Shown: in pieces, positions 22,707 to 23,555 of the stretch | Position numbering within the stretch: the first letter of the stretch is position 1 | Layout: each line of letters starts with the position of its first letter | From: Escherichia phage PinkRuby | Strand: one strand, 5' to 3' | Length of the DNA: 64,000 bases | Sequence record: PP925839.1 | The notes under the pieces: model-generated | What the model saw: the letters and a program-made list of their open reading frames with translations, nothing else | Database searches by the model: none | What the model was told of the DNA's origin: nothing | Program-made: the position numbers and the translations under genes

Positions 22707-23555
22707 TTAATCGACTGCTATTGGATGAATAGCATTAAACTTATGAAACGCTTCTGATTTTTCTTTGCGTGAAACACACATGCGAAGAACCTTTAATGGC
22801 TCGTCTTCTTCACCCAACGATTTTCTCTTTTCAATATTTGATGTTTTCCAACGAGCTTGCTCTGGAAACTCTCTATTGATTTGCTCAAGAGCTCTATTAT
22901 GTTTTGAATTACTACGAATTGAACTACATCCGCCTGGAGCTTGTGCTTTTCCAGACACAACCAGATATTTGAACAAGGCCAAATGCGGATAACCTTGATT
23001 AATTAAATTGAGAAATGCATACATATCTTCGCACAAATCAATTTTTCCATACCCAATTTGTTCTGTCGTAAGTTTTCCAAGGTCATACCATGTATTCGTG
23101 AATCCATATGAATTTTCACGATAATTACCCCAAGATGAAGTAATTTTAAAAATTGGTAGGCGAGCATGACCGTGATAATACCCACAATCCATGGCATCTT
23201 CGACGTATTGAATCAATTCATAGAACTGTTCACGAGTCAATTGATTGACTTTATCTACACAACGACGATCATCTCTTTTTCGCATTGAACTCATACGAAT
23301 AGTAGTATCATCGTCAATCATCCAGATTCGTTGACCTGCATACATATCAGTAATTGCTTTACGAGTACCGGCAATTCCGTTTACATCATCAGGAATAGTT
23401 ATAATTTTAGCTCTAGACCCATAAGCATCATAATAAGCTTTTTCTTCGTGTTCACGCACTACAATATGCGGTTCATAATCAGTCGGAAACATATCAAGGG
23501 CAGAAACTGCCCCGACACGTTGATAACTTGGAATTACGAATTGAATCATTTCCAC
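22707..23555 (-). CDS. putative GT-A-fold glycosyltransferase at the beta-gt position
   Basis: 282 aa; DXD-like motif (IWMIDDDTTI); does not resemble T4 beta-gt as recalled. Confidence 0.5.
   Translation of the reverse strand: MEMIQFVIPSYQRVGAVSALDMFPTDYEPHIVVREHEEKAYYDAYGSRAKIITIPDDVNGIAGTRKAITDMYAGQRIWMIDDDTTIRMSSMRKRDDRRCVDKVNQLTREQFYELIQYVEDAMDCGYYHGHARLPIFKITSSWGNYRENSYGFTNTWYDLGKLTTEQIGYGKIDLCEDMYAFLNLINQGYPHLALFKYLVVSGKAQAPGGCSSIRSNSKHNRALEQINREFPEQARWKTSNIEKRKSLGEEDEPLKVLRMCVSRKEKSEAFHKFNAIHPIAVD

Follow-up and report, generated by a model that had tools for sequence, protein, structure and literature searches.

A gene very probably encoding a T2/T6-type β-glucosyl-HMC-α-glucosyltransferase at the β-gt position of Escherichia phage PinkRuby

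Introduction

The pattern of sugars carried on 5-hydroxymethylcytosine (hmC) decides to which defenses of the host a T-even phage is open, among them McrBC, GmrSD/BrxU, Brig1-type glycosylases, and CRISPR-Cas. One of the enzymes that set this pattern is β-glucosyl-HMC-α-glucosyltransferase (βα-GT), an enzyme of T2 and T6 that Winkler and Rüger were reportedly the first to clone, in 1993.

Nearly all phages that encode glucosyltransferases pair either α-glucosyltransferase (α-GT) or β-glucosyltransferase (β-GT) with a TET-associated glycosyltransferase (TAGT); the T4 combination of α-GT and β-GT was found in only six of 753 genomes (PMC13216743). Phages of the Durham collection, like T6, carry α-GT and a TAGT located at the slot syntenic with T4 β-GT, and the TAGT has been credited with adding the second glucose (PMC13390438). 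Nucleoside HPLC/MS of phage Solly and six of its relatives detected approximately one third 5-hmdC and two thirds α-5-gentiobiosylmethyl-dC, along with α-5-glucosylmethyl-dC at a low background level; no β-glucosylation was detected, and Geo, EL, and BGP phages presented an intermediate 1:2:2 pattern (PMC13390438). Deletion of the βα-GT gene from T6 (Δba-gt or Δg-gt) leaves DNA with α-glucosyl-hmC only and renders the phage more susceptible to Brig1 (PMC11078745; bioRxiv 10.64898/2026.02.25.707755). Gentiobiosyl levels are approximately 5% in T2 versus approximately 72% in T6, two phages with near-identical enzymes (PMC13390438; bioRxiv 10.64898/2026.02.25.707755); the presence of the gene alone thus does not fix the ratio of the modified bases.

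Here, we compare with these systems a locus of Escherichia phage PinkRuby, located in a stretch of 64,000 nucleotides of record PP925839.1 that was analyzed as a whole (hereafter, the window). Knowing whether a phage carries both α-GT and βα-GT helps to predict its host range and to choose phages for therapy.

Results and Discussion

Similarity to T2 and T6 Enzymes but Not to T4 β-GT

The minus-strand gene located between uvsX and gene 42 almost certainly encodes βα-GT (also named g-gt or TAGT), which makes gentiobiosyl-hmC together with α-GT. The predicted protein differs at two of 280 residues from its counterpart in T2 (AP018813, MH751506), where R11 and P251 of the window protein are replaced by H and S, and at three of 280 residues from that in T6, where Y40, D55, and R106 are replaced by N, G, and H. 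No difference was found over 280 residues to SOLLY_044 of vB_Eco_Solly (OY720021.1), and seven substitutions separate the protein from that of vB_Eco_Geo. Residues 2–277 matched PHROG 842, "beta-glucosyl-HMC-alpha-glucosyltransferase", over profile positions 3–269 of 270 (2.2e-89), and Pfam PF20691 (TET-Associated Glycosyltransferase, TAGT) was matched over profile positions 2–205 of 205 with 38.9 bits (cut-off, 27.5). An earlier note, made from the sequence, had read the gene as a T2/T6-type glucosyltransferase and had proposed BLASTP against the T2 and T6 enzymes as a check; the two and three residue differences, along with the PHROG 842 and PF20691 matches, bear out this reading, and the enzymes compared are near-identical. 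The same note had predicted gentiobiosyl-HMC, in agreement with a protein identical to that of Solly, whose DNA was found by LC-MS to contain α-gentiobiosyl-hmdC without β-glucosyl-hmdC.

Homology to T4 β-GT was rejected, as neither BLASTP nor tblastn gave a signal. A BLASTP comparison of βα-GT with T4 β-glucosyltransferase (NC_000866 b-gt) yielded only noise (best E = 2.2), as did a tblastn search of the whole 64-kb window with T4 β-GT (E = 1.5), and the window protein had no match to PF09198, the family of T4 β-GT, at E ≤ 1. The lack of resemblance to the T4 enzyme stated in the earlier note is thus upheld by both the BLASTP comparison and the PF09198 search. None of the relatives carries a β-GT at a position other than the slot between gene 42 and uvsX.

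Solitary, distant TAGT homologues have been described in some phages without α-GT or β-GT (PMC13216743), an indication that the acceptor may vary among TAGTs, and the enzyme studied here could by extension use another sugar, or could carry out the first transfer, onto bare hmC, in the functional place of β-GT. We consider this highly improbable; the solitary TAGTs are distant homologues, whereas the window protein is 99–100% identical to enzymes of phages with gentiobiosyl-hmC and without β-monoglucosyl-hmC. In addition, deletion of the gene from T6 leaves α-glucosyl-hmC, so the enzyme works after α-GT.

Position, Start Codon, and Coding Status of the ORF

The mechanical ORF list contained a minus-strand ORF of 282 aa (22707..23555) that begins with GTG, with uvsX (21448..22629) downstream and gene 42 (23546..24286) upstream. 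The third codon of this ORF is an ATG (23549..23547) that overlaps the TGA stop codon of gene 42 (23548..23546) in the arrangement ATGA, with GGTGAG located a few bases upstream, and the gene is annotated from this ATG in T2, Solly, and Geo. Because of the ATGA overlap and of these annotations, the ATG at 23549 is most likely the true start, giving a βα-gt CDS at 22707..23549 (minus strand) and a protein of 280 aa rather than 282 aa; to judge from the sequence of this junction, the start is also most likely translationally coupled to gene 42. The earlier description of a 282-aa gene between uvsX and gene 42 hence stands as to position, and its length is to be shortened, likely to 280 aa. The motif IWMIDDDTTI that had been quoted from the translation is present in the ORF (QRIWMIDDDTTIRM).

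The base composition of βα-gt is the same as that of the neighboring genes, and all plus-strand ORFs over the locus are at most 95 aa long. A scan for promoters and terminators around βα-gt found nothing above the shuffled expectation. A GC-rich hairpin with a T-rich tail (GGGGCAGTTTCTGCCCT TGATATGTTT) is located on the minus strand at 23497..23513, approximately 40 nt inside the CDS; with one such site found and 1.1 expected by chance, this element is probably meaningless. Apart from this terminator-like hairpin within the ORF (23513..23497), uncertainty over which start is used, GTG or ATG, is the sole support for a chance ORF or a pseudogene without function, a possibility so slight that we regard it as negligible. 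The 280-aa frame is intact in a genome with 36% GC, its catalytic-type motifs are invariant, its start appears coupled to gene 42, and homologues covering at least 80% of the query occur in 684 phage records; the ORF is not a product of chance because, in total, 688 phage records encode a homologue.

The spacer between βα-gt and uvsX (22630..22706) is only 77 bp long, at the place where segA sits in T4, and holds an extended −10-like element (TGTTATAAT) upstream of uvsX.

Conserved Motifs and Predicted Fold

A search of a large protein database found only 11 relatives, and motifs were read from an alignment of nine of them, down to 32% identity. Three motifs were invariant across the nine members, including (i) I-P-S-Y-x-R (I6, P7, S8, Y9, and R11), (ii) D79-D80-D81, and (iii) G206-G207-x-S209-x-x-R212. 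The first comprises the N-terminal IPSYQR motif, with the family-invariant R11 (codon CGT at 23517..23519, minus strand), which is H in T2; the second corresponds to a DXD-type motif with codons GAC GAT GAT (23307..23315, minus strand) located where a predicted β-strand ends.

An AlphaFold2 model of βα-GT had a mean pLDDT of 72.5 and a pTM of 0.73, with 42 residues below a pLDDT of 50; the model is only moderately confident because the alignment was shallow (nine sequences). In this model, the N-terminal half is built of alternating β and α elements, and the DDD motif ends the strand formed by residues 74–79. When the model was compared with the PDB by Foldseek, the top matches were almost exclusively GT-A enzymes (WrtF, AvpGT, RmlT, SpsA, TarS, TarP, and chondroitin polymerase), with E-values to 2e-4 and low TM-scores (0.22–0.43). 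These data support, at the level of a predicted model whose reach ends short of active-site detail, assignment to the GT-A fold class with a conserved DXD motif, and the earlier description of the motif as "DXD-type" is consistent with both the invariance of DDD in nine members and the GT-A matches of the AlphaFold2 model. An AlphaFold3 model of the T6 TAGT was likewise placed in the GT-A superfamily, as a sister to GT2, in a 2026 NAR paper (PMC13216743). A search of the PDB by sequence yielded only noise (E > 1, to an unrelated PNPOx-like protein); no solved structure of the βα-GT family is detectable by this search. From the β-linkage formed out of UDP-α-glucose we infer an inverting mechanism, and the GT-A/DXD architecture points to a requirement for a divalent metal.

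Distribution among Phages

A tblastn survey of 50,697 phage records identified homologues in 688; in 684 of these, at least 80% of the query is covered, and 471 carry copies of at least 95% identity. Tequatrovirus phages infecting Escherichia, Shigella, Yersinia, Citrobacter, and similar bacteria account for most of the records; approximately 200 form a second group with 60–80% identity and represent T4-like phages of Klebsiella, Enterobacter, and Salmonella. Where annotated, the homologues are named beta-glucosyl-HMC-alpha-glucosyltransferase, β-α-glucosyltransferase, or glucosyl transferase, and adjoin dCMP hydroxymethylase and UvsX. Among Tequatrovirus phages, the combination of α-GT and TAGT is commoner than any other state, with T4 as the exception. 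A "different" enzyme at the β-gt slot, as the earlier note put it, is therefore different from T4 but is not an unusual replacement, since T4 is the outlier.

Partner and Flanking Genes

Gene 42, encoding dCMP hydroxymethylase, the source of the hmC precursor (23546..24286, minus strand; 246 aa), matched Pfam Thymidylat_synt and is identical to T4 gp42 at 237 of 246 residues; uvsX (21448..22629, minus strand), an ORF of 393 aa, matched Pfam T4_UVSX_C/RecA and is identical to T4 UvsX at 354 of 391 residues. The α-gt gene, encoding DNA α-glucosyltransferase (34955..36157, minus strand), matched Pfam AGT (PF11440) with 781.6 bits (cut-off, 25), and its product is identical to that of T4 at 362 of 400 residues and to that of T2 at 394 of 400, confirming the prior observation that α-gt is conserved at this position. 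Differences in α-GT number four of 400 residues to Solly, six to T2, and 36–38 to T6, Geo, and T4; by its sequence, the window gene is a T2/Solly-type allele. The 64-kb window thus contains α-GT and no homologue of T4 β-gt. An arabinosyl-type pathway (RB69/Mosigvirus) was set aside, as the window encodes a genuine α-GT and a gp42 with 96% identity to the dCMP hydroxymethylase of T4.

Gene 56, encoding dCTPase/dUTPase (15858..16376, minus strand; 172 aa from ATG), matched Pfam dUTPase_2 and shares 123 of 172 residues (72%) with the protein annotated as dCTP pyrophosphatase in T6, a noticeably divergent allele inside a region that is otherwise 95–97% identical. A blastn comparison with the loci fetched from T2, T4, T6, Geo, and Solly left 262 bp near gene 56 (15394..15655) unmatched. 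A tblastn search with T2 Dam found no homologue in the window (1..64000), in which dam would be expected at around 16.4 kb, flanked by genes 56 and 61. T6 and Solly likewise lack dam, which is present in T2, T4, and Geo.

Two further ORFs are located on the minus strand. One (24294..24443), situated between gene 42 and imm, encodes a small hydrophobic peptide of 49 aa that bears the label "Phage protein" in the annotations of Solly and Geo and is unannotated in T4, T2, and T6. The other (25090..25536) starts with TTG, comprises 148 aa, and is situated in the variable spacer that separates imm.1 from gene 43; part of this spacer (25080..25339) has no match in T6.

Proposed Pathway

The product and the phenotype assigned to βα-GT are taken from publications on proteins identical or nearly identical to it. 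By analogy, DNA would be synthesized with 5-hydroxymethylcytosine through the action of gp42 and gp56, with gp56 keeping dCTP out. α-GT would then attach glucose, donated by UDP-glucose, to the hydroxymethyl group through an α linkage, and its product would be the acceptor for βα-GT. The latter, a predicted GT-A enzyme with a DXD motif, would add a second UDP-glucose-derived glucose to the first in β-1,6 linkage, yielding gentiobiosyl-hmC. As the window encodes no β-GT, β-monoglucosyl-hmC would not be formed, provided that none is encoded outside the window, and some hmC would stay bare. The disaccharide would alter the set of host defenses to which the DNA is open; α-glucosyl-hmC, for example, would be masked from Brig1-type glycosylases.

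Expected hmC Pattern in PinkRuby

Because βα-GT is identical to that of Solly, R11 is kept, and α-GT is only four residues from that of Solly, we predict, by analogy, a T6/Solly-like pattern with approximately one quarter to one third bare hmC, approximately two thirds gentiobiosyl-hmC, and little α-monoglucosyl-hmC. Presence of dam was considered as a correlate of the intermediate 1:2:2 pattern of Geo, EL, and BGP; lacking a dam homologue, the window groups with Solly and T6.

βα-GT might instead work as poorly as it does in T2, in which case the DNA would be mainly α-monoglucosylated with a few percent of gentiobiosyl-hmC. This possibility draws on the T2-type α-gt of the window, which presents six differences from T2 versus 36 from T6, and on the low gentiobiosyl content (approximately 5%) of T2 itself, despite its near-identical βα-GT; it is unlikely, as both T2-specific substitutions (R11H and P251S) are missing from the window, R11 being invariant in the family, and as Solly, which combines a T2-type α-gt with an identical βα-GT, was measured to contain approximately two thirds gentiobiosyl-hmdC with α-glc-mdC at background level. 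A T2-type α-gt allele as a cause of low gentiobiosyl content was likewise rejected, since Solly has the same allele and a high gentiobiosyl content. The T6/Solly-like pattern thus remains our prediction for PinkRuby.

T2 differs from both Solly and the window in βα-GT by R11H and P251S only, and from Solly in α-GT by two residues. Since R11 is invariant in the family (nine members, down to 32% identity), R11H is a candidate for the low gentiobiosylation of T2; we tentatively propose that R11H or P251S may underlie the long known and unexplained gap between T2 (approximately 5%) and T6 or Solly (approximately two thirds), a suggestion drawn from sequence comparison that we hold as possible, though on balance doubtful. 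If it is true, the genotype at residue 11 would predict T-even hmC glycosylation from sequence, and the window would be classified as "high gentiobiosyl". R11H is found in both independent T2 genome records (loci 7283-8125 and 3286-4128), and R11 is kept in the window, Solly, and T6.

The public T6 records AP018814 and MH550421 disagree within βα-gt. In AP018814 (fetched locus 7135-7974), one Asp is lost in frame, changing DDD to DD; in MH550421 (fetched locus 22137-22979), codon 10 is a stop (Q10*) and the CDS is annotated from Met20. Because either change would be expected to affect activity, these may represent stock differences or sequencing errors.

Comparison with Known Systems

The gene, its product, fold class, distribution, and knockout phenotype have all been published, the gene is annotated in hundreds of genomes, and its identification here is a routine annotation of something already known. 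The checks suggested in the earlier note (BLASTP, LC-MS, and restriction phenotypes) are likewise already published for identical or near-identical proteins.

T2 and T6 share with the window a βα-GT of 280 aa, its slot between gene 42 and uvsX, and its ATGA coupling to gene 42, as well as the partner genes α-gt, 42, and 56; only ordinary allelic differences separate their enzymes from the window protein. Solly shares an identical βα-GT, the absence of dam, and the same gene order; its α-GT is T2-type (two residues from T2 and four of 400 from the window), and its genome is approximately 96% identical in nucleotides across the 48 kb that both have in common, with minor mosaic differences.

T4 β-GT (PF09198) occupies the position downstream of gene 42 that is syntenic with that of βα-GT, and likewise uses UDP-glucose as donor and hmC DNA as substrate (PMC13390438). 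However, T4 β-GT has a GT-B fold and acts on bare hmC, whereas βα-GT belongs to the predicted GT-A class and its acceptor is α-glucosyl-hmC; moreover, b-gt is followed in T4 by segA, a homing endonuclease gene (GIY-YIG), which is absent from the window. Cellular GT-A/GT2-like enzymes (SpsA, TarS, TarP, RmlT, and WrtF) share with the modeled βα-GT a nucleotide-binding N-terminal half and a DXD motif after a β-strand, but show only 9–22% identity and low TM-scores to the model, and transfer sugars to a cell-wall polymer or a small molecule, whereas the acceptor of βα-GT is a sugar on DNA.
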